Shown piece by piece: positions 6,594-31,629 of a DNA stretch of 37,167 nucleotides (the stretch's first letter is position 1; each line of letters starts with the position of its first letter). The notes below the pieces were generated by a model that saw only the letters and a list, made by a program, of their open reading frames with translations, was not told the DNA's origin and ran no database searches. Origin of the DNA: Vicinamibacteria bacterium (GTDB lineage: Bacteria; Acidobacteriota; Vicinamibacteria; Fen-336); contig JAICEW010000018.1 in NCBI GenBank assembly GCA_025923995.1, positions 1 to 37,167 of the forward strand, given 5' to 3'. Position numbers and translations under genes: made by a program.

Positions 6594-6683
6594 TGGTGGG
6601 CGGCATGGGATTCGAACCCAAGACGCTCCCGATGGGAGGACGGGGTTACAGCCCGTCGGCGGACCATCCGCACCGTACCGCCC
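6594..6683 (-). tRNA. tRNA-Tyr(GUA), long variable arm, CCA encoded
   Basis: The acceptor is GGGCGGT/GCCGCCC and the D-stem GGTG/CGCC. The anticodon stem ACGGG/CCCGT carries loop CTGTAAC (anticodon GTA). A variable-arm hairpin CTCCC-ATC-GGGAG and T-loop TTCGAAT follow, then A73 and CCA. Confidence 0.85.
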
Positions 6684-6757: not shown

Positions 6758-6795
6758 AAAAAAAAGGCCTTCCAGGGGATCGCCCTGGAAGGCCT
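6758..6795 (-). terminator. Rho-independent terminator on the minus strand
   Basis: A 13-bp perfect stem AGGCCTTCCAGGG / CCCTGGAAGGCCT with a 5-nt loop is followed on the minus strand by an 8-U run (plus-strand A8 at 6758-6765). Confidence 0.75.
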
Positions 6796-6993
6796 CGCAC
6801 TTCATGAATGCCGAGCCTTTAGGGTGAGTTGCCCCCCTCGGAGCCAAGGGTGCTGCCGGGATAACCCTCTGTCCAAAGCGACGAGAAGGATCCGCGCACG
6901 CACACCTCGACCCGGTCGATGCGGGTCAGGGACGCTGGCCTCGCCATCGAAGAGTGCGCCGAATTGAGGAGCCGCGAGATCAATTCAAACCTC
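6796..6993 (-). ncRNA. Candidate small transcript (sRNA or small-protein mRNA) running from a sigma70-like promoter to the terminator at 6758-6795
   Basis: A promoter-like TTGACA-17nt-TACATT lies at 7029..7001 on the minus strand, and the strong terminator ends at 6758, giving a ~230-nt transcript. It contains one 42-44 aa ORF (6819..6947 minus: MARPASLTRIDRVEVCVRGSFSSLWTEGYPGSTLGSEGGNSP) with no Shine-Dalgarno sequence. Confidence 0.3.
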
Positions 6994-7000
6994 GGCGCAC

Positions 7001-7029
7001 AATGTATGGACCCGCCGGCGAATTGTCAA
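7001..7029 (-). promoter_or_regulatory. Sigma70-like promoter on the minus strand (-35 TTGACA, 17-nt spacer, -10 TACATT)
   Basis: The hexamers were read off the reverse complement of 7001-7029. This AT-rich island sits in an otherwise ~70% GC region. Confidence 0.35.
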
Positions 7030-7080: not shown

Positions 7081-7094
7081 ATGACAGGCGTCAT
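7081..7094. promoter_or_regulatory. Fnr/Dnr-type box ATGACAGGCGTCAT (ATGAC-N4-GTCAT), centred 63.5 bp upstream of the ATG at 7151
   Basis: Both palindromic half-sites are perfect. Four more copies of the same motif lie in other promoter regions of this window. Confidence 0.55.
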
Positions 7095-7150
7095 AGGGCG
7101 CTGGCCGAGGGCATGACCACAATGGTCGCGCGACGATCAGGAGGAGTTCC

Positions 7151-7768
7151 ATGAGACCGTACCGCCCCCTTCTCGGAGCGCTCGCCGCTGCCGCGCTCGC
7201 GTTCTTCGCGGCGCCGTCCGCGGCCCGCGCCCACTGCGACACCATGGACGGCCCGGTGGTCGAGGAAGCGCTGGCCGCGCTGGCCTCCGGCGACGTGGTG
7301 CCGGTGCTGAAGTGGGTTCCGCCCGAGAGCGAGTCGCTGGTGCGAGACGTCTTCCGGCACACGCTCGCGGTCCGTGCCCTGGGACCGGAGGCGAAGGAGC
7401 TCGCCGACCGCTACTTCTTCGAGACACTCGTCCGAGTCCATCGCCAGGGCGAAGGAGAGCCGTACACCGGCCTCAGGCGCGCCGGGTCCCCGGTCGCTCC
7501 GGTCGTCGTGGCCGCCGACCGGGCCCTCGACGCGGGCTCGGCCGACGAGCTGGCGCGGATCCTGGGCGACACGATGGACCGGGGCCTGAAGGAGCGGTTC
7601 GCCCGCGCGGTCGAGGCCAGGAAGCACGCTTCCGAGAGCATCGAGAAGGGCCGGGCGTACGTGGCGGCCTACGTCGAGTTCGTCCACCACGCGCAGCGGC
7701 TACAGGACGCCGCCGGAGCCACGCCCGCGGTGCACGATGAGCACCCCTCGAGCGCGCACGCGCACTAG
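7151..7768 (+). CDS. Secreted conserved hypothetical protein (HCDTMDGPVV N-terminal motif, C-terminal His-rich tail); candidate periplasmic metal-binding protein
   Basis: AGGAGG lies 6 nt upstream of the ATG. The signal peptide MRPYRPLLGALAAAALAFFAAPSAARA ends with the A-x-A rule, which predicts a mature N-terminus of HCDT... The C-terminal tail is ...VHDEHPSSAHAH. Confidence 0.8.
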   Translation: MRPYRPLLGALAAAALAFFAAPSAARAHCDTMDGPVVEEALAALASGDVVPVLKWVPPESESLVRDVFRHTLAVRALGPEAKELADRYFFETLVRVHRQGEGEPYTGLRRAGSPVAPVVVAADRALDAGSADELARILGDTMDRGLKERFARAVEARKHASESIEKGRAYVAAYVEFVHHAQRLQDAAGATPAVHDEHPSSAHAH

Positions 7769-7800: not shown

Positions 7801-8646
7801 CTACTGGCCGGCGATTCCGCGGTTGACCAGCACCTTCGCGACCACCCGGCGGTTCTGGGCCCGGCCCGCGGAGGTCTCGTTGGACGCGGCCGGCTGGGCC
7901 GTGCTCATCGCGCCCGGCGCGAGCATCCGGTGGAAGGGGATGCCGCCGTTCTGCGCCAGCCAGTTGACGACGGCCTGGCTGCGCTCCAGGCTGAGCTTCT
8001 GGTTGACGTCCGCGCTGCCCGAGGCGTCGGCGTACCCCTCGACGCCGATCATGTAGCCCGGCAGCTCCTTCGCCCTGGCGGCGATCCGCGCCAGCTCGCT
8101 CGCGCCCTCCTGCGAGAGGGCCGCGCTGCCGACCTCGAAGTAGACCGTCCCTTCCGCGAGGACGTCGTAGTCTCCCAGCTGTCCGAAGCGCCGTGTCAGC
8201 TCGGCCTGCTCGCCCTGGACCTGACCGATCGCCTGCTTGTTGGCGTCGACCTGGCCCTGGGTCTCCGCCAGGCCGGCCTGGATGGCGCGCGCCGTCTTCA
8301 GGTCCTGCGAGGCGAAGCGGACCTTGGTCGCGATGAGCTGGCCGTGGTCGTCGCCCACGCCTTCCACCTCGACCCGCAGGCCGGGGATCAGCGCCGTCGC
8401 CGCGGCGCCCTCCTTGAGGATACCCAGCCGTCCCTTCTTGACCTTGACGTCCGTGCTGGCGGTGAGCCTGGCGACGACGGTCCCCATCTCGTTCTTGAGG
8501 GTCATGCTCTCGCCGGCACGGGAGGTGATCACGCCGTCGATCTTCGTCTTCTGGCCGAGCGGGATCTCGCGGGCGAACGTCAGCGGCGCCGCCGACAGCA
8601 CCAGCGAGACGGCGAGGGATTGCGCGCGAAGCGGGATCAGCTTCAT
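7801..8646 (-). CDS. OmpA-family protein (C-terminal OmpA-like peptidoglycan-binding domain), signal peptide
   Basis: The C-terminal domain carries the OmpA_C hallmark (...GYADASGSADVNQKLSLERSQAVVNWL...). The N-terminal signal is MKLIPLRAQSLAVSLVLSAAPLTFA. Confidence 0.85.
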   Translation of the reverse strand: MKLIPLRAQSLAVSLVLSAAPLTFAREIPLGQKTKIDGVITSRAGESMTLKNEMGTVVARLTASTDVKVKKGRLGILKEGAAATALIPGLRVEVEGVGDDHGQLIATKVRFASQDLKTARAIQAGLAETQGQVDANKQAIGQVQGEQAELTRRFGQLGDYDVLAEGTVYFEVGSAALSQEGASELARIAARAKELPGYMIGVEGYADASGSADVNQKLSLERSQAVVNWLAQNGGIPFHRMLAPGAMSTAQPAASNETSAGRAQNRRVVAKVLVNRGIAGQ

Positions 8647-8686: not shown

Positions 8687-10357
8687 CTAATGCGCCGCCA
8701 CCGCCTCGACCTTCGCGCGTCCGAGGACGCGGGCGTCGAAAGCCAGCGCGAAGTCGCCGCCGCCCTGGGTCACCTTGAAGAGGACCTCGTTGCGGCCGGC
8801 CGCGAGCGGCAGCTCCAGCTCGTCCTCGCCCTTGCGCAGCGCCCGCATGACGTCGCGCGCGAACACGCGCCGGCCGCCCAGGAACACGGCCAGGCCGTCG
8901 TCGCTGCCCATCGAAAGGTGCAGCGTCGTCGCCCGGTCGGCCTGGAGCACGACGCGCGCGTACGCGACGACGTAGGAGCCGGTGAGTCGCGCGCCGATGT
9001 CGACGACGCCGTCGACGAGCGGCGCGCTCGTCCACGCGACGGTCGCAGGGTGGGTCTCCGGCGGCTGGGGCGTGTCGAAGGTGACGAGCGGGTAGGTGGG
9101 CGACAGCTCGACCGAGCCGAGGGCGACCACGCCGCCCTGCGGCCGCAGCGCCACGCGATAGGTGCCGGGCCTGGCCAGCGTCCGCAGGGAGCGGCCCAGC
9201 TCGTCGGCGTACGCGCGCTGCGCGCGTGCGTGGGCCTCGAAGGTGGGGAGGGACGGCATCATGAAGGCCGGCTTCTGCAGGCCCATCACGCGCCAGGCGT
9301 CGAAGTGCTGCTTCCAGCGGAACTGCGCGGCCTCCCACAGCGTCCGGCCCGCCACGGTCCAGGCCGCGCCGTCGAGCAGCGCCAGGTCGACGCCGCGGGC
9401 CAGCTCGTCCCTCGTGAACGTGCCGGCGGTCCTGCCGTCGACCGACAGCACGAGCGGGTCGTCGCCCGGACCGGGCGTCACCTGCAGGCGGAAGCGGTTC
9501 AGCTCGTCCTGGAGCGGAACGAGGCCGAGCGCCGGCCGCGCTTCCGGGGGGACGTAGAACGGCAGGAAGGGAAGTGTCAGGTCGAAGCGGACCTCTCCGT
9601 CGGCCGCGGCCACGTTGGCGGCAGTGACGCCCTGCGCGCGCACGCGGGCGCCGTCGACGACGATCGAGCCGACCTCGCGCGGGGCGTCGATGCGGCGCAG
9701 CGCGAGGTACGCCATCACCAGGTGGCCGGCCGCGTCGGGATGGATCGCGTCGGGGATCATCGTGAAGCGGGCCTCCTTCGCCTGCGCGCGGCGCTGCACG
9801 TCGAGCATCGGCTGGAACAGGTCGATGAGCGGCAGCCCGCGCTCGGCGGCGAGCCCGGCCAGGCCGCGCGCCATGCGCGCCAGCGTCTCGTTGTAGACCC
9901 CGTCGTCCTTGCGCAGCACGTCGTCCACCGGCGAGGTCGTGAACAGGACCTCTCGCGCGCCGGCGGCCCGGATGGTGTCGGCCAGGGCGCGCTGGCCGTC
10001 GAGGTAGCTGCGGTACGTGGTCTCGTCGTATGCCTTGTACCCGCCGTCGTTCATCCCGAAGTTGACGAACACGAGCGACGGGCGCACGGGGCCCACGTCC
10101 CTCGCGTATCGCTTGTGGCCGCCCGCGGCCGTGTCGCCGCTCCAGCCCAGGTTGAAGACCGCGAGGTCCCTGGCCGGGAAGCGCGAGAGCAGGAAGGTCT
10201 CGAGGTAGGCGGTGTAGAGGTTCTGCTCGGTGATCGAGTCGCCGTAGAAGACGATCGTCTCGCGGTCCTGCAGGCGGATCGGCGGGGCCGGCTCGTCGGC
10301 CCACGTGTTCGCACCGGACGCACCGAGCAGCAGTCCCCAGACGATCGCGACGCGCAT
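8687..10357 (-). CDS. SGNH/GDSL-family hydrolase (esterase/lipase) with a C-terminal extension, secreted
   Basis: SGNH blocks are present: FYGDSITE (block I), FVNFGMNDG (block III), DAIHPD (block V). ATG at 10357 is preceded by AGGAGG at 5-nt spacing. The signal peptide is MRVAIVWGLLLGASGANTWA. Confidence 0.8.
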   Translation of the reverse strand: MRVAIVWGLLLGASGANTWADEPAPPIRLQDRETIVFYGDSITEQNLYTAYLETFLLSRFPARDLAVFNLGWSGDTAAGGHKRYARDVGPVRPSLVFVNFGMNDGGYKAYDETTYRSYLDGQRALADTIRAAGAREVLFTTSPVDDVLRKDDGVYNETLARMARGLAGLAAERGLPLIDLFQPMLDVQRRAQAKEARFTMIPDAIHPDAAGHLVMAYLALRRIDAPREVGSIVVDGARVRAQGVTAANVAAADGEVRFDLTLPFLPFYVPPEARPALGLVPLQDELNRFRLQVTPGPGDDPLVLSVDGRTAGTFTRDELARGVDLALLDGAAWTVAGRTLWEAAQFRWKQHFDAWRVMGLQKPAFMMPSLPTFEAHARAQRAYADELGRSLRTLARPGTYRVALRPQGGVVALGSVELSPTYPLVTFDTPQPPETHPATVAWTSAPLVDGVVDIGARLTGSYVVAYARVVLQADRATTLHLSMGSDDGLAVFLGGRRVFARDVMRALRKGEDELELPLAAGRNEVLFKVTQGGGDFALAFDARVLGRAKVEAVAAH

Positions 10358-13060: not shown

Positions 13061-13900
13061 ATGAGACATTCCGCCCTCTTGGCGCTCGTTCTGGCCCTCG
13101 CAGGCAGGTCCGCGCAGGCGGCCGAGCTCGAGCTGACCGGCTTCGTCGGGCTGACGCTGCCCTTCTACGAACAGACGTTCCCGATCGACCTGCGCCCGCC
13201 CGCGCAGCCCATCCAGGGCATCCAGATCCTGCAGGTCGAGCCGCTGCGCCTCAACGCGAAGGGGAGCTACACCTTCGCGGGCGCGGCCACGATCTACTTC
13301 GGCGCGCTCGGCATCGAAGGCCGCTACGACTCGGCCGACGCGGACCTGACCGCCGATCCGCCGGTATACTCGATCCGGCTTTCGAGCCCGTTCCCGAGCT
13401 TCACCACGAACCTCCAGCCCGCCCCGACGGTCGTGTCCCTCGCCGCCCTCACGCCGCTCTCGCTGAACCTGAAGATCCGCACCTCGGGTGCCGTCCGGTT
13501 CTTCGTCTCGGGCGGCATCAGCTACCTGCCCGACTTCCAGCTCGCGGTGCGCCAGCCGCTGAACCTGCGCTTCGCCGGAGTCGGCCTCCCGCCCGGATTC
13601 GACCTGGGCACGCTCACGGCGGAAGCGATCTCGCGGCCGGACGATCCCGAGGAGGGCAGCCGGCTCGGGGGCAACGGAGGGCTCGGCCTGCAGGTCGGGC
13701 TGGGCGAGCACCTGGCGCTCGTGGGCGACGCGCGGGCCTTCTACTTCCCGAAGCAGGTGCTCGAGTGGCGCGTCACCCAGACGGGCGGCGCCGTCGCGCT
13801 GCCGCCCGCGCTCGTCCAGTCGATCGAGCAGCAGCTGGAGCCGGTGCGGTTCAACCCCGCGTACTTCCACCTGCAGGGCGGGCTGGCGCTGTCTTTCTAG
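13061..13900 (+). CDS. Small outer-membrane beta-barrel protein (OmpW/OmpA-barrel-like), signal peptide
   Basis: The signal peptide is MRHSALLALVLALAGRSAQA. Alternating hydrophobic beta-strands end in ...GGLALSF. The stop codon overlaps the convergent regulator gene's stop. Confidence 0.65.
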   Translation: MRHSALLALVLALAGRSAQAAELELTGFVGLTLPFYEQTFPIDLRPPAQPIQGIQILQVEPLRLNAKGSYTFAGAATIYFGALGIEGRYDSADADLTADPPVYSIRLSSPFPSFTTNLQPAPTVVSLAALTPLSLNLKIRTSGAVRFFVSGGISYLPDFQLAVRQPLNLRFAGVGLPPGFDLGTLTAEAISRPDDPEEGSRLGGNGGLGLQVGLGEHLALVGDARAFYFPKQVLEWRVTQTGGAVALPPALVQSIEQQLEPVRFNPAYFHLQGGLALSF

Positions 13901-14583
13901 GCGCGGGTCAGCTCCTCGAGGGCCGCGCGGTCGGCGAGGACGAACCCGTCCTTCTCGGTCTCGAGGATGCCTTCCTTGCCCCAGCGGCTCATCAGGCGGA
14001 TGCAGGTCTCGATGGTCGTGCCGGTGAGGTCGGCCAGCTCCTGCCGGGTGAGGACCATCGGGATGAAGACCGCTCCCTCGCGTGCTCGACCCACCCGGTC
14101 CGCGAGCTTCAGGAACAGGTGCGCGAAGCGGGTCTCCACGCGCGCGCCCGCGACCTCCGGGATCCGCTGCGCCAGCTCGACGATGCGCCTCGTGAACGCG
14201 GACAGCAGGCCGCGCACGAGGGACGGGTGCTTCTCGAGCAGCGCGAAGAGCGGGCCGCGGCGGACGAGGAGGCAGGTCGTGCGGTCGAGCGCGATCGCGC
14301 TCGCCGGGAAGGGCCGGCCCTCGTAGGCCACGACCGCGCCCACGGGATCGCCCGGCCCGAAGATCTCGAGGATCACTTCCTTTCCGGACGGCTGCAGCTT
14401 CACCACCTTGACGCGGCCGGTGAGGACGGTGAGCAGGAAGTCGGAGGGGTCGCCTTCATTGAAGATGACCTCCCCCTTGTCCCACGACTTCACCAGCGCG
14501 ACTTCCGCCAGGCGCCGGCGGTCGTCGTCGGAAAGGCCGCGGTAGAGGGACGCGGTCCGGAGCGCCTCGCCGACGGGGTTCAA
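13897..14583 (-). CDS. Crp/Fnr-family transcriptional regulator (cNMP-binding domain plus C-terminal HTH; no N-terminal Cys cluster, so Dnr/NnrR/Nss-like rather than Fnr proper)
   Basis: The cNMP-binding fold and HTH (ELADLTGTTIETCIRLMSRWGKEGIL, with E..R in the recognition helix) are present. TTG start lies 18 bp downstream of the FGE-like gene stop, so it is probably co-transcribed with the nos operon. Confidence 0.8.
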   Translation of the reverse strand: MNPVGEALRTASLYRGLSDDDRRRLAEVALVKSWDKGEVIFNEGDPSDFLLTVLTGRVKVVKLQPSGKEVILEIFGPGDPVGAVVAYEGRPFPASAIALDRTTCLLVRRGPLFALLEKHPSLVRGLLSAFTRRIVELAQRIPEVAGARVETRFAHLFLKLADRVGRAREGAVFIPMVLTRQELADLTGTTIETCIRLMSRWGKEGILETEKDGFVLADRAALEELTRA

Positions 14584-14600
14584 GATGGGTCGATCTTACG

Positions 14601-15809
14601 CTATGGCCGGACCGTCCCTCCGCCCAGGATCGCGGCCACCCTGAAGCCGAGGTCGTCGCTGCTGAGCTGGGGCTGGAACTCCTCGCGGTAGGCGAGCTGG
14701 AGCCGCACGGCGCTCGCGCTGTACCACGAGCCGCCACGCGTCACGCGCATGCCGGGAAGGGCGTCCAGGTTGCGGGCGTCCTCGCGGTAGGGGTTCTTCG
14801 CGTTGTAGGGACGGAACAGCGACTGCGTCCATTCGCGCGCGTTGCCGGACGCGTGGAACACGCCGTACCGGTTGGGCCGGTAGCCGTGTGCCGTCGCCTC
14901 GAGCCCGACCAGCGTGGTGGCGGCGCCGGGGTTCTTGCGCCAGTTGTACTGCCCGGCCTCCCGCTCGCTCAGCTCCATCCCGATCCCGTAGTCGAAGCCG
15001 TCGGGGCCGCGCGCGGCCTTCTCCCACTCGGCCTCGGTCGGCATGCGGTAGAGCCAGCGCCCGTCACCGAGCCGGCGGGTCAGCCACCGGCAGTAGGCGT
15101 TCGCCTCGTACCAGTTCACGAGCACGACGGGCAGGTCGTCGCGCCCGAAGCGCGCGTAACGGGGATGTGAGGGAACGAGGCGCGCCGTCGCCTCCGAGAG
15201 GCCGTGCGACCGCCAGGCCCAGCCGGCGTCCGTCCAGCTCGAGCGATCGCCGTACCCGCGCGGGTCGGCCAGGAACGCGCGGAACTCGCGGTTCGTCACC
15301 TCGAACGCGGCCAGGTGGAACGACGGCACCCAGACGGCGTGCGGATGGCCCGGGTTGTGGCGATCGCCCATGGTGAAGGAGCCGCCGGGCACGAAGACGA
15401 ACCCCGGCGCACGATCGTCGAGACGCGCCGGCCGCTCGGACGCGACCCGGCGCACGGTCACGGGCCAGGCGTCGCCACCGTCGGGCGGCTCGGCCTCGGG
15501 GCCCGACGTCACCGGGAAGAGCTGCCGCTCGCCCGCGAGCTCGGCTTCGACGAAGTAGCGTCCGGGCGGCAGCCAGGACGCGTCGCCCTCGAGCGGCACC
15601 GGCTGCGCGTCCTCGAGCGTGGCTCCCGTCCGGCGCAGCGACACCGAGGCGCCCGCCGGGTTGACGATCCGCAGCTGGATCTCGCCGCGCGCCGAGTGAC
15701 GCGACCGCAGCGCCCCTGCCAGCTCGCGACGGGCGTACGCTCCCGCGCCGGAGAGGAGCGCGACGGTGGCGGCCGCCGCTGCCGCCACCGCCCAGAGGCG
15801 CCAGCGCAC
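14601..15809 (-). CDS. FGE-sulfatase (SUMF1/DUF323) domain protein, NirV-like, with N-terminal signal/anchor
   Basis: SUMF1 motifs are present (FVFVPGGSFTMGD, NWYEANAYCRWL, RMPTEAEWEKAARG, RGGSWYS). There is only one Cys, so the catalytic Cys pair of true formylglycine-generating enzymes is absent. GTG start sits 13 nt after the fasciclin gene stop. Confidence 0.8.
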   Translation of the reverse strand: MRWRLWAVAAAAAATVALLSGAGAYARRELAGALRSRHSARGEIQLRIVNPAGASVSLRRTGATLEDAQPVPLEGDASWLPPGRYFVEAELAGERQLFPVTSGPEAEPPDGGDAWPVTVRRVASERPARLDDRAPGFVFVPGGSFTMGDRHNPGHPHAVWVPSFHLAAFEVTNREFRAFLADPRGYGDRSSWTDAGWAWRSHGLSEATARLVPSHPRYARFGRDDLPVVLVNWYEANAYCRWLTRRLGDGRWLYRMPTEAEWEKAARGPDGFDYGIGMELSEREAGQYNWRKNPGAATTLVGLEATAHGYRPNRYGVFHASGNAREWTQSLFRPYNAKNPYREDARNLDALPGMRVTRGGSWYSASAVRLQLAYREEFQPQLSSDDLGFRVAAILGGGTVRP

Positions 15810-15821
15810 GAGGACAGCCCC

Positions 15822-16298
15822 CTACTGGGGCGGCAGCAGGACGGTGTCGATGGCGTGGACCATTCCGTTGGTGCAATCGATGTTCGCCTTGACCACCTTC
15901 GCGCCGTTCACGGAGACGGCGGCGCCCGTGACCGCGAAGGTCACCGGCTTGCCCTGTGCCGTGCCCGTCTGCTTCACCAGCTTGAAGTCGTCGGTGGTCC
16001 ACTTCGACGTGAGGACGTGGTACTTCAGGACCTCCTGCAGCTTCGCCTTGTCCTTGGCCAGGCCGGCGAGCACCTCCTTCGGGACCTTGGCGAACGCCTC
16101 GTCGGTGGGCGCGAACACCGTGTAGGGCCCCGGCCCCTTCATCACGCCGACGAGGTCGGCGTCCGTCAGCAGCTGCGCGAGCGTCTTGAAGCTGCCGGCC
16201 GCGACCGCGGTGTCCACGATGTCCTTCGGCTGGGCGAGGGCCGGCCGCGCGAGCGCCACGAACGCGGCGACGGCCCACAGGCACGAACGAGTCGTCAT
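15822..16298 (-). CDS. Fasciclin (FAS1) domain protein, secreted
   Basis: The FAS1 signature is present (YTVFAPTDEAFAKVPKEVLAGL...KYHVL...NGMVHAIDTVLLP). AAGGAGG lies 4 nt upstream of the ATG, and the signal peptide is recognisable. Confidence 0.85.
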   Translation of the reverse strand: MTTRSCLWAVAAFVALARPALAQPKDIVDTAVAAGSFKTLAQLLTDADLVGVMKGPGPYTVFAPTDEAFAKVPKEVLAGLAKDKAKLQEVLKYHVLTSKWTTDDFKLVKQTGTAQGKPVTFAVTGAAVSVNGAKVVKANIDCTNGMVHAIDTVLLPPQ

Positions 16299-16323
16299 GG
16301 GACCTCCTTGGCGATGCGTCGTC

Positions 16324-17154
16324 CTAGAGATCGGCCCGGCGCAGCCGCCGCAGGGCCAGCCACGCCGGTGCCGCGAGCCAGAAGAGCAGGGACAGGCCGA
16401 TCACGACTCCCGCCCCGCGGGGACCGCCCGTGAAGCGGAACAGGGCGAGCGAGGCCGCGCCGAAGGCGCCGGTGCCCTCGATCCCGAGCAGCGCTCCCGT
16501 CCGCACGGCGGCCAGCGGGTTCACGACGGCCGCGACCATCAGCACACGCGACGCCGTGCCCGAGGGCAGCAGCGACGCCGCGCCCAGCGCGAGCAGGTCG
16601 AGGAACACGACCGCCACGAACCAGACCACGAGCGCCAGCGCCAGCGCGCGCGTCCGCTTGCGTCCCACGGAGCTGGCCGAGAGGAGCGCGGCCAGGCCCA
16701 GGAAGATCGCGGTCGTGACGAGCGAAGCCAGCACGAGCAGGAGGAAGCCGCCCAGCCCCTCCGCTCCCGACTGCGCGTAGACGACCATCCCGGCCGCGCC
16801 GAAGCCGACGGCCTGGGCGGCGCCCAGCGCCTGGAGCAGGCCCAGAAGCTTGCCGAACAGGATCGTGCCGCGGGAGACCGGTTGCGAGAACGTGAGCTCG
16901 GCCGCGCCGCGCTCGGGTGCCAGGGAGAGCACCCCGATCACGAGCGCCGTGAGCGGCACGATGAGGAGCACGAGCTGGACGAGCGACACGGCCGTGCGCG
17001 CGAAGTCCTGCACGCCGTGGCCGCCCGAGAGGACGTACCCGGCTCCGGCGACCGCAAAGGCGAGGACGCCAAAGACGGCGGCGAAGATCTGGGTCCAGCG
17101 GGACCGGAGCGCCAGCACCAGCTCCTCGCGGGCGAACAGGGCGAGGTGGCTCAT
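16324..17154 (-). CDS. nosY: NosY, ABC-2 type permease of the NosDFY system
   Basis: It is a 276-aa polytopic membrane protein. Its ATG overlaps the nosL stop (ATGA), and it lies downstream of nosF and nosL. Confidence 0.8.
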   Translation of the reverse strand: MSHLALFAREELVLALRSRWTQIFAAVFGVLAFAVAGAGYVLSGGHGVQDFARTAVSLVQLVLLIVPLTALVIGVLSLAPERGAAELTFSQPVSRGTILFGKLLGLLQALGAAQAVGFGAAGMVVYAQSGAEGLGGFLLLVLASLVTTAIFLGLAALLSASSVGRKRTRALALALVVWFVAVVFLDLLALGAASLLPSGTASRVLMVAAVVNPLAAVRTGALLGIEGTGAFGAASLALFRFTGGPRGAGVVIGLSLLFWLAAPAWLALRRLRRADL

Positions 17155-17585
17155 CGTTCGCTCCCACCCGGGAACACCTCGGACCGCGCGACCGGTGTCC
17201 CTGCTCGCGCCGCCGGGTCCTGGTCCCTGGACGCCGCGTCCGCGTGCGCGATCAGGTGCGATCCCATCGGCGTGGCCAGTTCGGGCACGCGCGTATAGGT
17301 CGCGTCCTGGCCACGCACCCACGCACGCGTCCGATGGTCCGCGACGAACACGGCCGCGTGCTGCGGCGCTCGTCCCGCCTTCAGGTAGCCGGCCAGACAG
17401 CCCAGGTCGTCGAAGAACCGGGGCACCTCGCCCGGGGCCACGATCTGCGCGGCGAAGCGTGCTTCCGACACCGCCATGCGGCAGGCGGCGCAAGCCTCCT
17501 GGCGCGTGTCGAGCGGTGCCGGCTCGAGCGCCCCGCCCGCGCAGCCGGCCAGCACGATCAGGAGCGCCAGGGTCGCCCCTCTCAT
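17151..17585 (-). CDS. nosL: NosL, copper-chaperone lipoprotein for N2O reductase
   Basis: The lipobox LLIVLAGC is followed by the NosL-like motif EACAACRM...AAQIV...RFFDDLGC. AGGAG lies 7 nt upstream of the ATG. The ATG overlaps the nosF stop, and the nosL stop overlaps the nosY ATG. Confidence 0.75.
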   Translation of the reverse strand: MRGATLALLIVLAGCAGGALEPAPLDTRQEACAACRMAVSEARFAAQIVAPGEVPRFFDDLGCLAGYLKAGRAPQHAAVFVADHRTRAWVRGQDATYTRVPELATPMGSHLIAHADAASRDQDPAARAGTPVARSEVFPGGSER

Positions 17586-18496
17586 GCGTGCGCTCCTGGC
17601 GGCGCGTCCGCGACCAGCTCGCGGTACAGCGCGTCGAGCCGTCCGTCCTCCGCCGTCAGCCCGCGCACCTCGACGCCCAGCGCGCGCACGGCCTCGAGAA
17701 CGCGCGGGCGGATCCCGGCCGGGCCGGGCACGACCAGCTCCTCGCCGGCCCAGGTGGCGGCCGGCGCGACCGCCCTCACCGCGACGAGCAGGCCCGCGGG
17801 GTTCGCGGCCAGTCGGAGGCGCATGACTCCGCGCTCGGACAGGCGGTCCTTCAGCTCCGTCGCGGTCAGGCGGGCCGCCAGCCGCCCGCCCACCAGCACC
17901 GCGAACCGATCGGCGAGCCGCTCGACGTCGCCCAGGTGGTGCGAGGTGAAGAGGACGGCACGGCCGTCGTGGCGCGCCCGTTCCACGATGCCGTAGAACG
18001 CGCACAGGCCGTCCGGGTCGAGGGCCGCCGTGGGCTCGTCGAGCAGGAAGACGGGCGCCTCCGCCAGCAGCGCGACCGCGAGGCCCAGGCGCTGGACCAT
18101 GCCTCCCGAGTAGGTGCCGACGGCGCGACCGCCGGCGCCGTTGAGGGAGGCGAAGCGGAGCACCTTCGTCACGCGGTCGGCCGGCGCACCGCGGAGCTTG
18201 CGGTAGAACTCGACCACCTCCGCTCCCGTGAGCGCCTCGGGGAAAGAGACCTTCTGGGGCAGGAACGAGAGCACCTCGCGCGCGGCCGCGTCCGCGGCGG
18301 GGCGGGGCGGGTCGCCGAGCAGGACGTCGCCCGAGGTCGGCCGGATGAGACCGGCGGCGGCCTTGAGCGTCGTCGTCTTGCCCGAGCCGTTGGGCCCGAG
18401 CAGTGCCACGACCTCGCCGCGCGCCACCTCCATCGAGAGGCCGTCGACGGCCAGCTGGCCGCCGAAGCGCTTCGTGAACGCGCGGTAGCGGATCAT
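17582..18496 (-). CDS. nosF: NosF, ABC transporter ATP-binding protein
   Basis: It has Walker A GPNGSGKTT, the signature YSGGMVQR and Walker B LLDEPT. The ATG overlaps the nosD stop by 4 nt. Confidence 0.85.
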   Translation of the reverse strand: MIRYRAFTKRFGGQLAVDGLSMEVARGEVVALLGPNGSGKTTTLKAAAGLIRPTSGDVLLGDPPRPAADAAAREVLSFLPQKVSFPEALTGAEVVEFYRKLRGAPADRVTKVLRFASLNGAGGRAVGTYSGGMVQRLGLAVALLAEAPVFLLDEPTAALDPDGLCAFYGIVERARHDGRAVLFTSHHLGDVERLADRFAVLVGGRLAARLTATELKDRLSERGVMRLRLAANPAGLLVAVRAVAPAATWAGEELVVPGPAGIRPRVLEAVRALGVEVRGLTAEDGRLDALYRELVADAPPGAHA

Positions 18497-19872
18497 CGCG
18501 CCCCGACTCGCATCGTCAGCGCGCCGAGGAGGGTCAGCGCGGCGGAGGCCACGAGGCCGATCGGGCTCGCGCGTCCCTCCCGCGGGCGGCTCGTCGGTAC
18601 GCGCGCCATCAGCGGCGGGCGGGCCAGCGGCTCGGGATCCTCGACCGGCACCGCGCGCAGGACGGGGAACGCGCGCTCGGCGGCGCCGATCGCGGCGGCC
18701 GCGAAGCTGTCGGCGAGCAGGTCGGCCGCGGTGAGGTTGCCGCGGAAGTGGTCGAAGACGCTCGTCAGCACGTACGGGCGGTCGCTGCGGCCGTCGCCGT
18801 CCAGGTCGGGCTCGTCGTTGCCGGACCAGTAGTTGCCGCGGAAGACGGTGTCCGTCCGGCGCGCGACCAGCTCGAGAGGGGACCGGTTGCCGACGAAGAC
18901 GTTGCCCTCGAAGCGATGGCCGCCCGCCGGGTCGTACAGGATGACCGCCACGTCCGACCCCGCGACCGCGTTGCCCTTGAGCGTGATGCGATGCGACCCC
19001 TCGATGAAGACACCGCGGGCGTTGTCGGCCACGAGGTTGTCCTCGGCCAGCACGTCGTCGCAGGTCTGGAAGAGCAGGCCGACCGACGCGAAGCCGCGGT
19101 TGCGCACGAAGCGGTTGCGCCGGAACACGATGCGCTTCGAGTACATGATGGCGGTGCCGGCCGCGCCGTTCTCGAACGTGTTGTCCTCGAACACGTTGTC
19201 GTCCGAGAACATGTAGTGCAGGCCGTAGCGCACGTCGCGCGCGGTGTTCCGCCGCAGCACGCCCCTGGAGGCGTTCTGGAGGTACAGGCCGTCGCGGACG
19301 TCCACGATCTCGTTGTCCTCGAACCGGAAGCCCTCGAGGTTGTAGGCGTGGATGCCGGATCCCTTCTCGCCGGCTTCCCTCCCGGGGATCCCGCGGATGC
19401 GGCACCGTTCGACCACCGCGCCGCTCGCCTCGCGCAGGTAGACGCCGAAGATGGCCTCCCGGATGTCGAGGTCGCGCAGCGTCGTGTCGCGCGCGGACGT
19501 GTGCACGCCGGCCGAGTCGAGCGAGAGGTCGCCCCCGCGGCGGCCGTCGATCGCGAACCCCTCGACGGTCACGCCATCGGTGCGGATGCGCACGACGCTG
19601 CCGCGTCCCGACCCCAGCAGGAGGGGCCGGCCGCGGCCGACGAGGCGCAGCGGCTTGTCGATGACGAGGTCGCCCGCGTACTCGCCTGCGGGGACCTCGA
19701 CCGTCGCGCCAGTCCCGGCGGCATCGACGAGCGGCTGGAGCGCGGAGACGTCGGCCGCGGCAGGCCTTCCTTCCTGCGCGGCCGGCGCGACCGCGGCCAT
19801 CTGGTCGGCCCTCGCGGACGCCGCGAGCAGGCACAGGGCGGCGGCGAGCGCCGCGCGCGGGACGTGGGTCAC
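18493..19872 (-). CDS. nosD: NosD, periplasmic right-handed parallel beta-helix copper-binding protein
   Basis: The signal peptide is followed by repeated NosD/parallel-beta-helix repeats (GIHAYNLEGFRFEDNEI..., GLYLQNASRGVLRRN...). GTG start lies 1 nt after the nosB-like gene stop. Confidence 0.9.
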   Translation of the reverse strand: MTHVPRAALAAALCLLAASARADQMAAVAPAAQEGRPAAADVSALQPLVDAAGTGATVEVPAGEYAGDLVIDKPLRLVGRGRPLLLGSGRGSVVRIRTDGVTVEGFAIDGRRGGDLSLDSAGVHTSARDTTLRDLDIREAIFGVYLREASGAVVERCRIRGIPGREAGEKGSGIHAYNLEGFRFEDNEIVDVRDGLYLQNASRGVLRRNTARDVRYGLHYMFSDDNVFEDNTFENGAAGTAIMYSKRIVFRRNRFVRNRGFASVGLLFQTCDDVLAEDNLVADNARGVFIEGSHRITLKGNAVAGSDVAVILYDPAGGHRFEGNVFVGNRSPLELVARRTDTVFRGNYWSGNDEPDLDGDGRSDRPYVLTSVFDHFRGNLTAADLLADSFAAAAIGAAERAFPVLRAVPVEDPEPLARPPLMARVPTSRPREGRASPIGLVASAALTLLGALTMRVGAR

Positions 19873-19873
19873 C

Positions 19874-20500
19874 TCAGGCCTCGCGGCGCCATTGGCGCCA
19901 GGCCATCGCCAGGGCGAGAAGGACGAGCACCGCCGCCGCGCCGAGCGCGTACGAGCCGAGCTGGGGATACGAGTAGACCTCGAAGTTGGCGAGCTTCTTG
20001 TACCCGAACAGCGGCGGCATGAACGGGTCCACGCGCACCGCCGCCTTGGGGTCGAGCTGGTGGCCGTACTGGTACATCTTGTAGGCGAAGGACCACAGCG
20101 CGAACAGGGAGAAGTAGAAGTACAGGACCGCCACGTCGACCAGGTGCGACGCCTTGCCCATCACCGCGGCCCTCAGGAACAGCAGCCCGATGATCCCGAT
20201 CACGAAGGGGAGCCACTTGAACTCGGTGAAGTCCTCCGTCACGAGGTCCTTCATCCCGATGTAGTGGTTGAGGACGTTGATCTCCTTCACGTCCTGGTTG
20301 TCGTTGCCCCCCTGGAGCTTGTAGCTGTAGATGTCGAGGCGCAGGCCGTCCTGGTACTGCGGCGCGAACATCGTCATGTTGTAGAGCGGCGCCACGTAGG
20401 CCGGCGCCAGGCACAGGAAGGCGAGCGCCAGCAGCACCCGCGGCGCCACGTCCAGGGGCGCGTCCAGGAAACGGTTCACCTTTTCGAGCGACCGGCGCAC
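19874..20500 (-). CDS. nosB: NosB-like integral membrane protein (clade II nos clusters)
   Basis: The 208-aa protein has several predicted TM helices. It lies immediately downstream of nosZ, as in clade II clusters. GTG start is preceded by GGAGGTG 4 nt upstream. Confidence 0.6.
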   Translation of the reverse strand: MRRSLEKVNRFLDAPLDVAPRVLLALAFLCLAPAYVAPLYNMTMFAPQYQDGLRLDIYSYKLQGGNDNQDVKEINVLNHYIGMKDLVTEDFTEFKWLPFVIGIIGLLFLRAAVMGKASHLVDVAVLYFYFSLFALWSFAYKMYQYGHQLDPKAAVRVDPFMPPLFGYKKLANFEVYSYPQLGSYALGAAAVLVLLALAMAWRQWRREA

Positions 20501-20525
20501 ATGTCACCTCCGGCGGGCAACGAAT

Positions 20526-20545
20526 GGGGTGCGACGCCGCACCCC
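20526..20545 (-). other. Hairpin GGGGTGCG-ACGC-CGCACCCC in the nosZ-nosB spacer
   Basis: The perfect 8-bp stem was read from the sequence. No U-run follows it. Confidence 0.45.
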
Positions 20546-20602
20546 GGCCCGAACCACGGACACGCGGCGAAGCGGGATCCACTCCCGCGAGCCGCGGGGG
20601 GG

Positions 20603-20632
20603 TCTGGGGGGTGCGGCGCAGCACCCCCCAGA
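20603..20632 (-). other. Hairpin TCTGGGGGGTGC-GGCGCA-GCACCCCCCAGA beginning 1 nt after the nosZ stop codon
   Basis: The perfect 12-bp stem was read from the sequence. It may be an intra-operon attenuator or mRNA-stabilising structure. Confidence 0.5.
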
Positions 20633-20633
20633 C

Positions 20634-22490
20634 TCAACGGACGATCAGGTAGCCCTGCATCTCCTGATGCAGCGCCGAGCAGAAGTTCGTGCAGTAGTAG
20701 GGGAAGACGCCCTTCTTCTTCGCCTTGAAGGTGACGGTCTTCGTCTCGCCCGGGTCCACGACGATGTTGATGTTGTAGTCGAGCAGCCCGAAGCCGTGCA
20801 GCTCGTCGGTGGTCTGCTCGATGTTGGTGATGGCGACCGTGACGTCGTCGCCTTCCTTGATCTCGAAGTCCGTGGGCGTGATGGTCGACCGCACCGTGAT
20901 CATCTTCACCAGCACCTTGCTGCCGGTGCGGGTGACGCCGGCGTCCTTCACGTCCCAGATGGCGTGGGGGTGCTTGTTCTCCTCCTTGGGGTACACCTCG
21001 ATGGGCTTGATCTTGTCCGCCTTGATGATCTGCGCGTAGTGCGGCTCGGGCTCGGTGAAGAAATCGAGCAGGAGCTTCATCTTCTCCTCGCTGATGTCCA
21101 CGAGCTGGGACGCCTCGGGCTGCGAGGGGCCGACCGACAGGTGCCGGCCGTGCGACAGCTTGTTGAGGCCGACCAGGTACTTCCCGTCGGGGCTCACGGT
21201 GTCGCCCTCGGCCGCGGTCAGGTGGCCGATGGAGTAGGACATCGGCACCTTGTCCACCACCTCCCAGCTCCCCAGCTTCCACTTGGCGATCGCGCTGTCC
21301 ACGAACAGCGAGGTGTAGGCGAAGCCGTCCGGACCGAACTGGGTGTGAAGCGGGCCGAGGCCGACCGGCACCTCGGCGTCCTTGATGGACTCGTACTTGA
21401 GGACGGGGATGCCGTCCTCGTCGCCGGAGAAGTCCTTGTTGCGCATCGCGGTCTGGACCTTCTCCCAGTTGAACGCGGTGGTGACGCCCTGCAGCTTGCC
21501 CGACCCGATGATGTACTTGCCGTCGGGCGCGACGTCGACGCCGTGCGGCGACTTGCCGCAGGGCATGAAGTACACGAGGCCGGGGTGCTTGGCGGGGTCG
21601 ATCACCTTCACGCCGCCGATCGCCTGCCCTTCGCCCTTCGCCGCCAGCTGCTCGGCCATCCTCCAGTCGACGGCGGCGATGTAGTCGCGGTCCTTCTGGG
21701 CGGAGGTGACCTCCAGCTTCCCGGTGGCGCGCTCGGTGTTGTACGAGGTGAAGAAGACCCAGCCGTCCGACACCTTCTTGCCGGCGTCGCCCAGGTCGTA
21801 GTCGAAGGGCGGCATCAGGATCTGCCACCCGATCGACATCGCGCCCGTGTTGGGGTCGATCTTGATCCCCGTCACGACGCCCTTGTAGTCGCTCGCGTAC
21901 TTCGCGACCTCGACCGCGGTGCCCTTGGGGATGGGGATCGAGAAGCGCGAGGCCATCACCGAGTACTCGGTGTTGGGCGTGACGAAGGCCGAGCCGTGGT
22001 TCCCCGACACGTTCGGCACGGGGCCGATGATCTGCTTCGTCTTGAAGTCGCGCAGGTCCACGCGGGCGACGCGGCCGTTCATCTCGTTCACGAACATCCA
22101 GCGGCCGTCGTAGTCCCCGTTCGTCTCCGACAGCGCGGGGTGGTGCACGTCGCCCCAGGTGAGGTCGCCCAGCATCGCCTTCGACTCGTCGTCGAAGCCG
22201 TAGCCGGTGGCCGGGTAGGGCGTGAAGACGGGGATGGTCGAGATGTGCCGGCCCGAGGGCAGGCCGTACACGTACATCTGGCCGGAGTGGCCGCCGGACG
22301 CGAACAGGTAGTACTCGTCGAGGTCGCCGGGGGCCACGTAGACCTTCATGGCCGCGTTGGCCACGTCGGACACGACGGCGCCCTTCTTGGAGCCCTTGGG
22401 AGCGCTGGGGGCGCAACGCGCCTGCAGGAGCCCGGCCGCGGCGATCCCGGCCAGCGTCGCGAGGACGGTGCCGGCACGTCTCGTCTTCAT
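20634..22490 (-). CDS. nosZ: Nitrous-oxide reductase NosZ, clade II (Sec-dependent) type
   Basis: It has the C-terminal CuA motif CTNFCSALHQEMQGY and the seven-bladed propeller CuZ-domain His pattern. The Sec-type signal (MKTRRAGTVLATLAGIAAAGLLQA) is not Tat. GAAGGAGG lies 5 nt upstream of the ATG at 22490. Confidence 0.95.
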   Translation of the reverse strand: MKTRRAGTVLATLAGIAAAGLLQARCAPSAPKGSKKGAVVSDVANAAMKVYVAPGDLDEYYLFASGGHSGQMYVYGLPSGRHISTIPVFTPYPATGYGFDDESKAMLGDLTWGDVHHPALSETNGDYDGRWMFVNEMNGRVARVDLRDFKTKQIIGPVPNVSGNHGSAFVTPNTEYSVMASRFSIPIPKGTAVEVAKYASDYKGVVTGIKIDPNTGAMSIGWQILMPPFDYDLGDAGKKVSDGWVFFTSYNTERATGKLEVTSAQKDRDYIAAVDWRMAEQLAAKGEGQAIGGVKVIDPAKHPGLVYFMPCGKSPHGVDVAPDGKYIIGSGKLQGVTTAFNWEKVQTAMRNKDFSGDEDGIPVLKYESIKDAEVPVGLGPLHTQFGPDGFAYTSLFVDSAIAKWKLGSWEVVDKVPMSYSIGHLTAAEGDTVSPDGKYLVGLNKLSHGRHLSVGPSQPEASQLVDISEEKMKLLLDFFTEPEPHYAQIIKADKIKPIEVYPKEENKHPHAIWDVKDAGVTRTGSKVLVKMITVRSTITPTDFEIKEGDDVTVAITNIEQTTDELHGFGLLDYNINIVVDPGETKTVTFKAKKKGVFPYYCTNFCSALHQEMQGYLIVR

Positions 22491-22512
22491 GATTGCCTCC
22501 TTCAAGGCGTCG

Positions 22513-23763: not shown

Positions 23764-23776
23764 TTCTCGCCTCTCA

Positions 23777-27633: not shown

Positions 27634-27647
27634 ATGACCGTCGTCAT
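27634..27647. promoter_or_regulatory. Fnr/Dnr-type box ATGACCGTCGTCAT, ~58 bp upstream of the nos-operon first gene (minus strand)
   Basis: It has perfect ATGAC/GTCAT half-sites with an N4 spacer. Confidence 0.55.
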
Positions 27648-27698: not shown

Positions 27699-27712
27699 CT
27701 GACGGCCGTCAT
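27699..27712. promoter_or_regulatory. Fnr/Dnr-type box cTGACGGCCGTCAt, centred 55.5 bp upstream of the hemerythrin gene start (27761)
   Basis: The 12-bp perfect palindrome is TGACGGCCGTCA. Together with the box at 27634..27647 it forms a divergent promoter pair. Confidence 0.55.
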
Positions 27713-27760: not shown

Positions 27761-28366
27761 GTGCAGATAGCGATCGAAGTCCTGATGAACGAGCACCGCC
27801 TGATCGAGCAGGCGCTGGGGTCCCTCGAGACGTACGCCGTCGAGGTCCGGGCCGGGCTGGCGCCGGCCCGGCAGATCGTCGGCGAGTACGCCTCGTTCTT
27901 CCGCGGCTTCGCGGACGGCTGCCACCACGGCAAGGAGGAGGACGTGCTGTTCCAGCGCCTGCTGGAGCGGGGCTTCCCGCGCCAGTCGGGGCCGCTGGCG
28001 GTGATGTACCACGAGCACGAGCTCGGACGCGCTCACGTCGGCGCCCTGTCCGGGATCGCAGAGCGGCCGGGCTCGGTCCAGACGCCGGAGGTCGAGGCGC
28101 TGCTCGCCAGTGCCGACGCCTTCGTGCCCCTCCTCCGCCAGCACATCCTCAAGGAGGACCGCATCCTCTACCCGATGGCGCTCGACGTGCTGAGCGGTCC
28201 GGAGCTCGACGCGATGAACACGCAGTTCGAGGAGTTCGAGGCGACGATGCGCGTGGACGGCACCTACGACGCCCTGCAGGCGCTGGCGGAGCGCCTGATC
28301 GTCCGTTTCCGCCCGGACCCGGTCCGCATGGCCGCGGTCTCGCAGATGGCCCACTGCGGCCGATGA
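27761..28366 (+). CDS. Hemerythrin-like (HHE cation-binding) domain protein
   Basis: GGAAGGAGG lies 6 nt upstream of the GTG. It has repeated H..HH / HE / H...KED metal-ligand spacing (NEHRLIE, GCHHGKEED, YHEHELGRAH, QHILKEDR). Confidence 0.8.
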   Translation: MQIAIEVLMNEHRLIEQALGSLETYAVEVRAGLAPARQIVGEYASFFRGFADGCHHGKEEDVLFQRLLERGFPRQSGPLAVMYHEHELGRAHVGALSGIAERPGSVQTPEVEALLASADAFVPLLRQHILKEDRILYPMALDVLSGPELDAMNTQFEEFEATMRVDGTYDALQALAERLIVRFRPDPVRMAAVSQMAHCGR

Positions 28367-30498: not shown

Positions 30499-30512
30499 TG
30501 ACGGCCGTCATA
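30499..30512. promoter_or_regulatory. Fnr/Dnr-type box ATGACGGCCGTCAT between the divergent radical-SAM and methyltransferase genes
   Basis: It is a perfect 14-bp palindrome. Its centre is 41.5 bp from the rSAM ATG and 40.5 bp from the methyltransferase ATG at 30546. Confidence 0.6.
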
Positions 30513-31615: not shown

Positions 31616-31629
31616 ATGACGGCCGTCAT
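31616..31629. promoter_or_regulatory. Fnr/Dnr-type box ATGACGGCCGTCAT upstream of the cupin gene
   Basis: It is a perfect 14-bp palindrome (a 16-bp palindrome if flanks are included: cATGACGGCCGTCATg). Confidence 0.6.

Follow-up and report, generated by a model that had tools for sequence, protein, structure and literature searches.

What might a small secreted protein do if its predicted mature form begins with histidine and ends in a histidine-rich tail? The question is raised by an open reading frame (ORF) at positions 7151..7768 (+) of a 37,167-bp stretch of DNA (71% GC; contig JAICEW010000018.1, from a Vicinamibacteria bacterium), the whole of which is called the window here. The original prediction had answered with copper, on the grounds of the N-terminal histidine, the tail and a nitrous oxide reductase (nos) locus close by. 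The family to which the protein belongs, DUF6448, points elsewhere. The best overall explanation, to which we give a probability of about 0.55, is that the ORF encodes an extracytoplasmic metalloprotein with an N-terminal His-Cys site, which belongs to a nitric oxide (NO)/low-oxygen regulon and would serve NO defence in the periplasm.

Export and the predicted mature N-terminus

The ORF begins with ATG and specifies 205 residues, read directly as MRPYRPLLGALAAAALAFFAAPSAARA|HCDTMDGPVV...VHDEHPSSAHAH, where the bar marks the predicted cleavage site. Its codon-position GC (0.77/0.52/0.89) is gene-like, above all at the third position, and we therefore regard it as a genuine gene; a strong Shine-Dalgarno sequence, AGGAGGAG (7139..7146, +), can be read 4 nt 5' of the start codon. 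The first 27 codons (7151..7231, +) encode a Sec-type signal peptide with the classical n/h/c architecture, composed of a basic n-region (MRPYR), a hydrophobic stretch (PLLGALAAAALAFFAAP) and a c-region, SAARA|H, that places A-R-A at positions -3 to -1. Among the 187 family members with complete ends, which underlie all presequence and tail statistics given here, the presequence has a median length of 26 residues, with Ala at -1 in 177 and Ala or Val at -3 in 166, so that secretion by means of a signal peptide ending in SAARA, as first proposed from the single protein, agrees with the pattern of the whole family. Two other routes were considered and ruled out: Tat export, as an RR motif occurs in only 4 of the 187 and the window protein has no twin-arginine motif, and a lipoprotein, because the histidine at -1 relative to the cysteine is incompatible with a lipobox.

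The placement of this histidine directly after the predicted cleavage site, with cysteine next, was likewise upheld by the family. An AxA-type site is followed immediately by HCD(T/S/A/G)xxGP in 117 of 120 close members and 138 of 150 diverse members, HCD coming straight after the predicted site in about 96% of the family, and conservation in the alignment starts exactly at the histidine. We strongly infer from this pattern that signal peptidase I cleaves after A-R-A, which would turn His28 into residue 1 of the mature protein, followed by its sole cysteine. Two plasmids of Gram-positive bacteria carry a gene for a Peptidase_S26 signal peptidase I just after the DUF6448 gene, as the next annotated gene on pTHF of Tetragenococcus halophilus (L093:6902-8478) and 4 bp 3' on pT4302 of Aerococcus urinaeequi (L094:5917-7198), which indicates that processing of the protein is important. 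No S26 gene adjoins DUF6448 in the window or in 79 Gram-negative loci, and the housekeeping signal peptidase would do the processing in these hosts. The Tetragenococcus protein also bears a C-terminal LysM domain and the Aerococcus protein a C-terminal membrane anchor, additions that confirm an extracytoplasmic location.

The all-helical core (7247..7690, +) matches Pfam DUF6448 (PF20046) with 191.9 bits (E=7.2e-57; gathering score, 27 bits), residues 33-180 covering profile positions 1-147 of 147. The Pfam model thus begins at residue 33, five after His1, and leaves out His1-Cys2-Asp3, which may be why the HCD motif has been overlooked. The window protein matches no NCBIfam model and no sequence in the PDB, the family being without a solved homologue, and a literature search for the term DUF6448 returned no paper; the statement that no function is attached to the HCDTxDGPV family therefore stands. 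DUF6448 has more than 4,278 matches among 90%-identity clusters, and an exhaustive profile search gave 2,583 representatives at 50% identity. Carriers among reference genomes, nearly all of them metagenome-assembled genomes (MAGs), include Acidobacteriota, Planctomycetota, Verrucomicrobiota, Nitrospirota, Desulfobacterota, Armatimonadota and others. The family is commonest in anaerobes (Desulfobacterota, Nitrospirota) and concentrated in sulfate reducers, syntrophs and Nitrospirota.

Within an alignment of 270 members, five residues are each at least 97.7% conserved, namely His1 (260/264), Cys2 (258/264) and Asp3 (263/264), encoded at 7232..7240 (+) and forming the proposed metal-binding N-terminus, together with His70 (268/270) and Glu74 (269/270). 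Cys2 is the only cysteine in 174 of 187 mature proteins and is thus expected to be a free thiol that takes no part in a disulfide bond. The candidate co-ligands lie in the segment His70-Arg71-Gln-Gly-Glu74 (mature numbering; 7439..7453, +) of a conserved loop, HRxGEGxPYTGLK, and conservation makes His70 a candidate for the second histidine of a brace-like site. The AlphaFold2 model of the mature protein (mean pLDDT 91.6, and 91 over residues 1-10) comprises seven helices, and its beta-bridge between residues 4 and 82, assigned by DSSP, would dock the N-terminus on the loop that bears His70 and Glu74. Two variants have lost several of these residues jointly (Fisher p 0.001-0.02, with two informative sequences). 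P0208, which begins QYD, is the sole sequence without Glu74 and one of two without His70, and also lacks His1, Cys2, His152 and Arg71 while keeping the other invariant residues; P0271 begins YFD and lacks His152 and Arg71. A mononuclear metal site is the arrangement that this conservation and the model suggest, with His1 and Cys2 as ligands, probably completed by His70 and Glu74, and with Fe, Ni or Cu as candidate metals. The use of a free N-terminal histidine would be reasonable by analogy, given recent experimental precedent in other families (PMC12537917). His152 was considered as a further, obligatory ligand; the proposal is weakened by distant members (gamma-proteobacterial, Tetragenococcus) that have Arg or Lys there and an intact His1-Cys2. 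Two proteins about 80% identical to that of the window, P0003 and P0005, read HWD in place of HCD through a single-base change (TGC to TGG), which is either a sequencing error or a natural loss of Cys2.

The protein ends in a low-complexity, His-rich tail (7688..7765, +) that finishes in HAH, is disordered in the model (pLDDT below 50 at mature residues 169-178) and may be involved in metal capture. The tail, on which the copper proposal had also drawn, is a real trait of the family: histidine makes up 14.7% of tail residues against 3.5% of the core, at least three histidines are found in 173 of the 187 tails, and 116 (62%) have a terminal H-x-H. Methionine accounts for 0.5% of the tail, unlike typical periplasmic Cu(I) binders. 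This composition and the anaerobic hosts would weigh mildly against Cu(I); Fe, Ni and Cu(II) appear compatible.

Operators and gene neighbourhoods of the family

A perfect palindrome, ATGAC-AGGC-GTCAT, occupies 7081..7094; it begins 70 bp 5' of the ATG, its centre lies 63.5 bp upstream, and its core, TGAC-N4-GTCA, spans 7082-7093. The window contains five copies of the core where 0.52 would be expected, and none of 100 shuffles reaches five. All five copies are intergenic and in promoter-like positions, and four extend to ATGAC-N4-GTCAT. An Fnr-type box, one of five, thus does precede the gene as predicted, although the canonical FNR consensus is not matched (TTGA-N6-TCAA, 0 matches in the window). 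Two of the other boxes (27635-27646 and 27700-27711) lie between a gene for a cytoplasmic hemerythrin-like protein (27761..28366, +; PF01814) and a long minus-strand operon that runs from a GltD-like oxidoreductase through cytochrome b, cytochrome c and nosZ onwards; one (30499..30510) separates a radical-SAM gene (-) from a methyltransferase gene (30546-31229, +), and one (31617..31628) is upstream of a cupin gene (31237-31581, -). The TGA-N6-TCA core, the promoter position, the repetition and the presence of a Crp/Fnr gene identify the box as an operator of the CRP/FNR family. The candidate box-binding protein is a Crp/Fnr-family regulator encoded at 13897..14583 (-), which has Pfam cNMP_binding and HTH_Crp_2 domains and weak NCBIfam matches to FixK and Fnr, all below cut-off. 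A possible -10 element, CACAAT (7118..7123, +), is suggested by its spacing only and would fit a class II activator site with transcription starting near 7129-7130; a consensus scan found no sigma-70 promoter on the plus strand, as is usual where transcription depends on an activator.

Operators of the HcpR, DNR and FNR type are likewise 14-bp palindromes with a TGA-N6-TCA core. The window box has the core of the HcpR-type motif, TTGACnnnnGTCAA, which has been described ahead of hcp and norB (PMC1274295), with outer A/T instead of TT...AA, and differs from the FNR/DNR box, TTGATnnnnATCAA (PMC1274295). The identical 14-mer stands at the same distance upstream of two orthologues (loci L083 and L084) and 147 bp upstream of a third (L081), and where the window has its box, an orthologue of 84% identity carries a related palindrome, ATGGGAC-N4-GTCCCAT (L086:2220-2391). 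More distant carriers have perfect FixK/FNR boxes upstream of the DUF6448 gene or operon, TTGATCTGTATCAA in Sinorhizobium meliloti and S. medicae and TTGATTTTTATCAA in Tetragenococcus, or an FNR-like TTGA-N6-TCAA box, TTGATATTCCTCAA, in Aerococcus. Crp/Fnr genes are also found near DUF6448 in L081, L083, L085, L092 and L093. Control differs by group: Acidobacteriota, Sinorhizobium and Lactobacillales have Crp/Fnr-type boxes, whereas Desulfobacterota use NorR/sigma-54. No universal promoter motif was found upstream of the family (TGAC-N4-GTCA in 2 of 76 regions, a sigma-54-like element in 4 of 76); many of the genes are operon-internal, and the regulators differ by phylum. Judged from these sequences, Crp/Fnr-type, NorR/sigma-54 and TetR-type control converge on DUF6448 across phyla.

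The genes among which DUF6448 is found point the same way. For 79 reference-genome loci, every ORF lying up to 6 kb from the gene was clustered without prior assumptions. The commonest neighbour is the NorB subunit of cNOR or qNOR (20 loci; E=8e-113 to Pseudomonas aeruginosa NorB, 3O0R_B), 20 of the 22 ORFs being co-directional with DUF6448 and many adjacent to it. It is followed by hemerythrin-like proteins (12), TetR regulators, always immediately upstream (10), MFP efflux adaptors (10), RIC/ScdA (9; TIGR03652 above cut-off), HPP (8) and CBS (8) proteins, flavorubredoxin-type NO reductase (7; NF008887 above cut-off), NorR (6; NF003451 above cut-off) and Hcp (4). At least one NO-handling or hemerythrin-type neighbour is present in 37 of the 79 loci, in most cases co-directional and no more than 3 kb away; by a rough estimate, which was not computed, perhaps 1-2% of random 12-kb stretches would contain such NO genes. 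The hemerythrin-like protein, which shares its box with DUF6448 in the window, is its most faithful partner elsewhere, standing beside it in L081, L083, L088 and L092 in addition to the 12 loci of the census.

Annotated examples illustrate the association. Plasmid pPRO1 of Pelobacter propionicus DSM 2379 has the order nrfA-4Fe4S-HPP-hcp-PAS-ric-flavorubredoxin-DUF6448-ferredoxin, and in Desulfopila sp. IMCC35006 and Desulforhopalus norR diverges from a sigma-54 promoter (TGGCAC-N5-TTGCA) that is followed by cupin-ferredoxin-DUF6448-FDP-RIC-qNOR. A Nitrospirota genome has DUF6448-norC-norB, a Phycisphaerae MAG qNOR-TetR-DUF6448-MFP/ABC-rubredoxin-RIC-FDP, and metagenomic contigs have DUF6448-hemerythrin-Crp (L081) or TetR-DUF6448-hemerythrin-cupin (L087, L088). 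S. medicae has a hemerythrin-DUF6448 pair, and in S. meliloti 1021 the same pair lies behind a perfect FixK box on pSymA (L096, NC_003037.1 618,930-619,553), in an island with 6 FixK boxes in 18.6 kb. Apparent fusions join DUF6448 to hemerythrin (at least 7 representatives), to ScdA_N plus hemerythrin (RIC) and to rubrerythrin, cupin and SnoaL-like domains (P0141, P0150, P0153, P0159, P0177, P0210, P0239, P0213, P0220, P0255, P0133 and P0142). Headed by a signal peptide, such fusions could place normally cytoplasmic di-iron domains outside the cell; gene-calling read-through is also possible. The stand-alone partners (hemerythrins, cupins, RIC, FDP) lack signal peptides and are cytoplasmic; in a set whose other products stay in the cytoplasm or the membrane, DUF6448 is thus the one that is exported.

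The link to copper and N2O reductase on which the original prediction had drawn is not borne out by this census. BLAST of the window NosZ and NosD against all neighbour ORFs placed nosZ or nosD within 6 kb of DUF6448 in 0 of 79 loci, and no copper-handling, copper-resistance or chaperone family recurs in the clustering; the conserved co-location with nos that an accessory gene would show, and one with copper genes, were rejected on these two results. The co-occurrence of the motif family with nos and cop genes that was to be scored does not show in the 79 loci, where NO-handling genes recur instead. Only in the related acidobacterial locus L083 was nos seen close by: DUF6448 lies 3.5 kb from nosDFLY there, in an island that also contains the hemerythrin, cupin and radical-SAM genes which in the window have the box; the radical-SAM/methyltransferase pair flanks DUF6448 in this locus, and orthologous cupins stand beside it in L083 and L085. 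In the window itself, the gene does share the stretch with the N2O reductase locus but is not next to it: nosD (18493-19872) is 10.7 kb and nosZ (20634-22505) 12.9 kb away, with five unrelated genes between the target gene and nosD (OmpA, a GDSL lipase, an Omp85-like protein, an unknown ORF and the Crp/Fnr regulator). The copper/N2O-reductase rationale is accordingly not supported, and the proximity of nos in one lineage was misleading.

Proposed role in NO defence and competing explanations

Based on the above data, we propose that DUF6448 acts as a periplasmic arm of NO defence. In this mechanism, signal peptidase I would cut after A-R-A and expose His1 next to the sole Cys2; a mononuclear metal site would be formed by His1, through its free amine and its imidazole, and by the Cys2 thiolate, probably joined by His70 and Glu74, and the disordered His-rich tail would help to capture the metal. 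The Crp/Fnr-family regulator would act through ATGAC-N4-GTCAT on the genes for DUF6448, hemerythrin, cupin and methyltransferase/radical-SAM proteins and on the nos-containing operon. That the gene belongs to an NO/low-oxygen stress regulon is well supported by the operators and neighbourhoods, from which induction by NO or low oxygen may be inferred. Our suggestions as to the chemistry are more tentative. The metal-thiolate site might reversibly bind or buffer NO outside the cytoplasmic membrane and possibly hand it to a membrane NO reductase (NOR), which we regard as possible. The broader notion of a new class of extracytoplasmic non-heme metalloproteins, with a one-cysteine 'hook' as a catalytic or NO-binding centre that acts directly on periplasmic NO (for example through a reversible metal-nitrosyl or S-nitrosothiol or by hand-off to NOR), is a doubtful one.

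Several observations weigh against this proposal as a whole. In 42 of the 79 loci there is no NO-related gene within 6 kb, and the window lacks a NOR gene, its DUF6448 gene being monocistronic. Control of the FNR/FixK type reports low oxygen as much as NO, so that the two stimuli are not separated. Since the partners are cytoplasmic, the association is one of co-regulation and not a demonstrated interaction. The ligand set is deduced from the conserved residues, a single DSSP contact and a pair of variant sequences, and the fusions are cluster representatives, possibly biased to the longest sequences and seen at the protein level only. A variant carried by an island of Marinobacter type has neither the His tail nor His152, which is replaced by Arg, so that neither of these two elements can be essential. 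This island (VIT1, PepSY, DUF2271, PepSY and a ferric-reductase-like protein, then a response regulator, a kinase, AraC and DUF6448) is found in Marinobacter sp. NP-4 (L095, gene at 7917-8498) and on large conjugative plasmids of clinical Enterobacteriaceae (Klebsiella, Salmonella, Citrobacter, Enterobacter, Raoultella and Serratia), such as pNDM1_085031 of Klebsiella pneumoniae (L090, gene at 8917-9498). There the gene has a two-component system and an AraC regulator for neighbours, along with genes of the ferric-reductase-like, PepSY and VIT1 types, in place of NO-related ones.

Four other explanations have to be weighed against periplasmic NO defence. A periplasmic copper-binding protein of the histidine-brace type, which would buffer copper or supply N2O reductase, would account for the N-terminal histidine, the adjacent thiolate and the His-rich tail, all of which could bind copper. 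CopC and YcnI do bind Cu(II) through an N-terminal histidine, the operator is common to the target gene and an operon that apparently contains nosZ, and the gene in L083 is only 3.5 kb from nosDFLY. Nevertheless, nosZ, nosD and recurrent copper-resistance or chaperone families are missing from the 79 loci, and the commonest neighbours, cNOR and qNOR, are not known to contain copper. The Met-poor tail (0.5%) and the concentration of the family in sulfate reducers, syntrophs and Nitrospirota also argue against copper; profile and fold searches related the protein neither in fold nor in sequence to CopC, YcnI or LPMO, the best Foldseek match, CopM (E=3.5, TM 0.23), being noise. We consider this explanation quite improbable. 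An enzyme resembling nickel superoxide dismutase (NiSOD) or superoxide reductase, in which the His1-Cys2 site would remove superoxide and thereby prevent peroxynitrite from forming under combined NO and O2 stress, is unlikely, although HCDxxxG coincides with positions 1, 2, 3 and 7 of the nickel hook HCDLPCG. The pairing with an S26 peptidase on two Lactobacillales plasmids mirrors sodN-sodX (PMC3919588), some NiSODs have Sec signal peptides (PMC12537917), and a rubrerythrin fusion and nearby AhpC and Dps genes would suit an oxidative role. However, NiSOD binds its metal through His1, Cys2 and Cys6 (PMC5722923), and in DUF6448 Cys6, Pro5 and Tyr9 are absent, with M/L at position 5, D/N/E/G/S/T/A/H/R/F at position 6 and V at position 9. 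The hhalign probability against Streptomyces coelicolor SodN is 0.4%, neither the profile search nor the fold searches found NiSOD, and NorR-controlled operons in strict anaerobes indicate NO, not superoxide, as the stimulus.

The protein might instead capture or traffic metal in the manner of DUF4198 or an 'anglerase', acquiring or holding periplasmic Fe, Ni or Zn under NO or oxidant damage, as a periplasmic counterpart of RIC. Most characterised proteins with a histidine after the signal peptide serve transport or sequestration (PMC12537917), and a His-rich capture tail, fusion to and adjacency with RIC and hemerythrin di-iron domains, the ferric-reductase-like, PepSY and VIT1 genes of the gamma-proteobacterial plasmids and the MFP/ABC efflux genes adjoining in 10 loci would all be in keeping with it. 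Yet the census shows no recurrent TonB receptor, ABC importer or metal regulator (NikR, Fur, Zur) alongside DUF6448, and the buried, docked N-terminus of the model (pLDDT 91) would suit a fixed site better than a transfer site, a weak argument; on balance we do not think trafficking a likely function. An explanation that dispenses with the metal, either with Cys2 as a thiol that senses redox state or S-nitrosation or with the protein as a structural or chaperone factor in the assembly of NOR, is compatible with the single invariant cysteine and with the norCB or qNOR genes adjoining in 20 loci. It leaves unexplained the requirement for histidine in first position, the coupled conservation of His70 and Glu74, the His-rich tail and the dedicated signal peptidase, and most family members have no NOR gene nearby; we regard it as highly improbable.

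Periplasmic NO defence by DUF6448 would have partial parallels among known proteins. NiSOD (SodN, Sod_Ni) shares a mature His-Cys-Asp start, Gly7, a helical scaffold and the requirement for proteolytic exposure of His1, and an S26 peptidase gene adjoins DUF6448 on the two plasmids as sodX adjoins sodN. DUF6448 differs in its larger size (about 150 residues, seven helices), its Sec export and an NO-regulon context in place of nickel/Nur control, and the resemblance to the nickel hook is at the motif level only. Cytochrome c', a periplasmic helical-bundle protein that binds NO and mitigates nitrosative stress in denitrifiers and others, is a functional analogy. It carries heme through CxxCH, and DUF6448, which has neither a heme motif nor homology to it, would on this hypothesis be a non-heme counterpart. 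LPMOs, CopC and YcnI are also secreted, and their N-terminal histidine, freed by signal-peptide cleavage, chelates copper through amine and imidazole (PMC10952591), as proposed for the metal here, but they are beta-sandwich proteins without an adjacent cysteine, whereas DUF6448 is all-alpha, has an invariant Cys2 and lacks a copper gene context. The closest conceptual precedent is a 2025 study of 'signal-strapping', in which DUF families with the same conserved histidine after the signal peptide were shown experimentally to bind metals; DUF4198 binds Ni with a Kd of 18 nM, in preference to Cu, and the families described are DUF4198, DUF6702, Ang-1 and Ang-2, without DUF6448 (PMC12537917). Those families are beta-rich and accompanied by metal-uptake genes, in contrast to the helical fold, the added Cys2 and the NO-detoxification link of DUF6448. 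Secreted metalloproteins that use an N-terminal histidine are thus known in general; the DUF6448 family, its invariant Cys2, its fold without a solved relative and its tie to NO defence are new.

Accounts of bacterial defence against NO deal almost wholly with enzymes of the cytoplasm and the membrane (Hmp, NorVW/FDP, Hcp, RIC, NOR), and a widespread, dedicated periplasmic component would fill a gap. DUF6448 is associated with three unrelated types of regulator, is spread over more than 10 phyla and is carried by conjugative plasmids of clinical Enterobacteriaceae and of lactic acid bacteria; in annotation, it is best assigned to NO/low-oxygen stress regulons. To bioinorganic chemistry it would offer a natural His1-Cys2 site at the N-terminus of a new helical scaffold, intermediate between the histidine brace and the NiSOD hook. 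Tractable carriers include S. meliloti 1021 (pSymA), P. propionicus DSM 2379, Desulfopila sp. IMCC35006 and the Klebsiella and Salmonella plasmids.

Other features of the window

Other window proteins fall into 90%-identity clusters whose members are named Vicinamibacteria, and the contig is probably part of an acidobacterial MAG. The box regulon on the contig also takes in a NapH/NosH-like 4Fe-4S membrane protein, together with the hemerythrin, the radical-SAM/methyltransferase pair and the cupin. The whole minus-strand operon, from the GltD-like oxidoreductase by way of the two cytochromes, b and c, as far as nosZ-nosD, apparently belongs to it as well, and no box lies directly upstream of nosZ. 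The nos cluster (14601-25126, -) has a pair of genes for cytochrome b and a multi-heme cytochrome c directly upstream of nosZ and a 208-residue ORF without a Pfam match between nosZ and nosD (19874-20500). Two further ORFs without a Pfam match (16295-18005) follow nosD and, by position, may be nosF, nosL or nosY; after them come genes for a fasciclin-domain protein and an FGE-sulfatase (SUMF1-like) protein.

On the other side of the target gene, ARAGORN calls a 90-nt tRNA-Tyr (GTA) at 6594-6683 (-). The Rfam tRNA model does not report it at the gathering threshold, and it scores below threshold on tRNA-Sec, presumably on account of a long variable arm. At a relaxed threshold, Rfam found only two tRNAs in the upstream gap, and its hits to 6764-7029 were sub-threshold noise. 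Upstream of this tRNA and divergent from the target gene, a good sigma-70-like promoter, TTGACA-17-TACATT, lies at 7029-7001 (-) and is followed after about 200 nt by a strong terminator-like hairpin with a T-run (6796-6764, -). The interval between them (6764-7029, -) could encode a small RNA or a 54-residue ORF (6819-6983).

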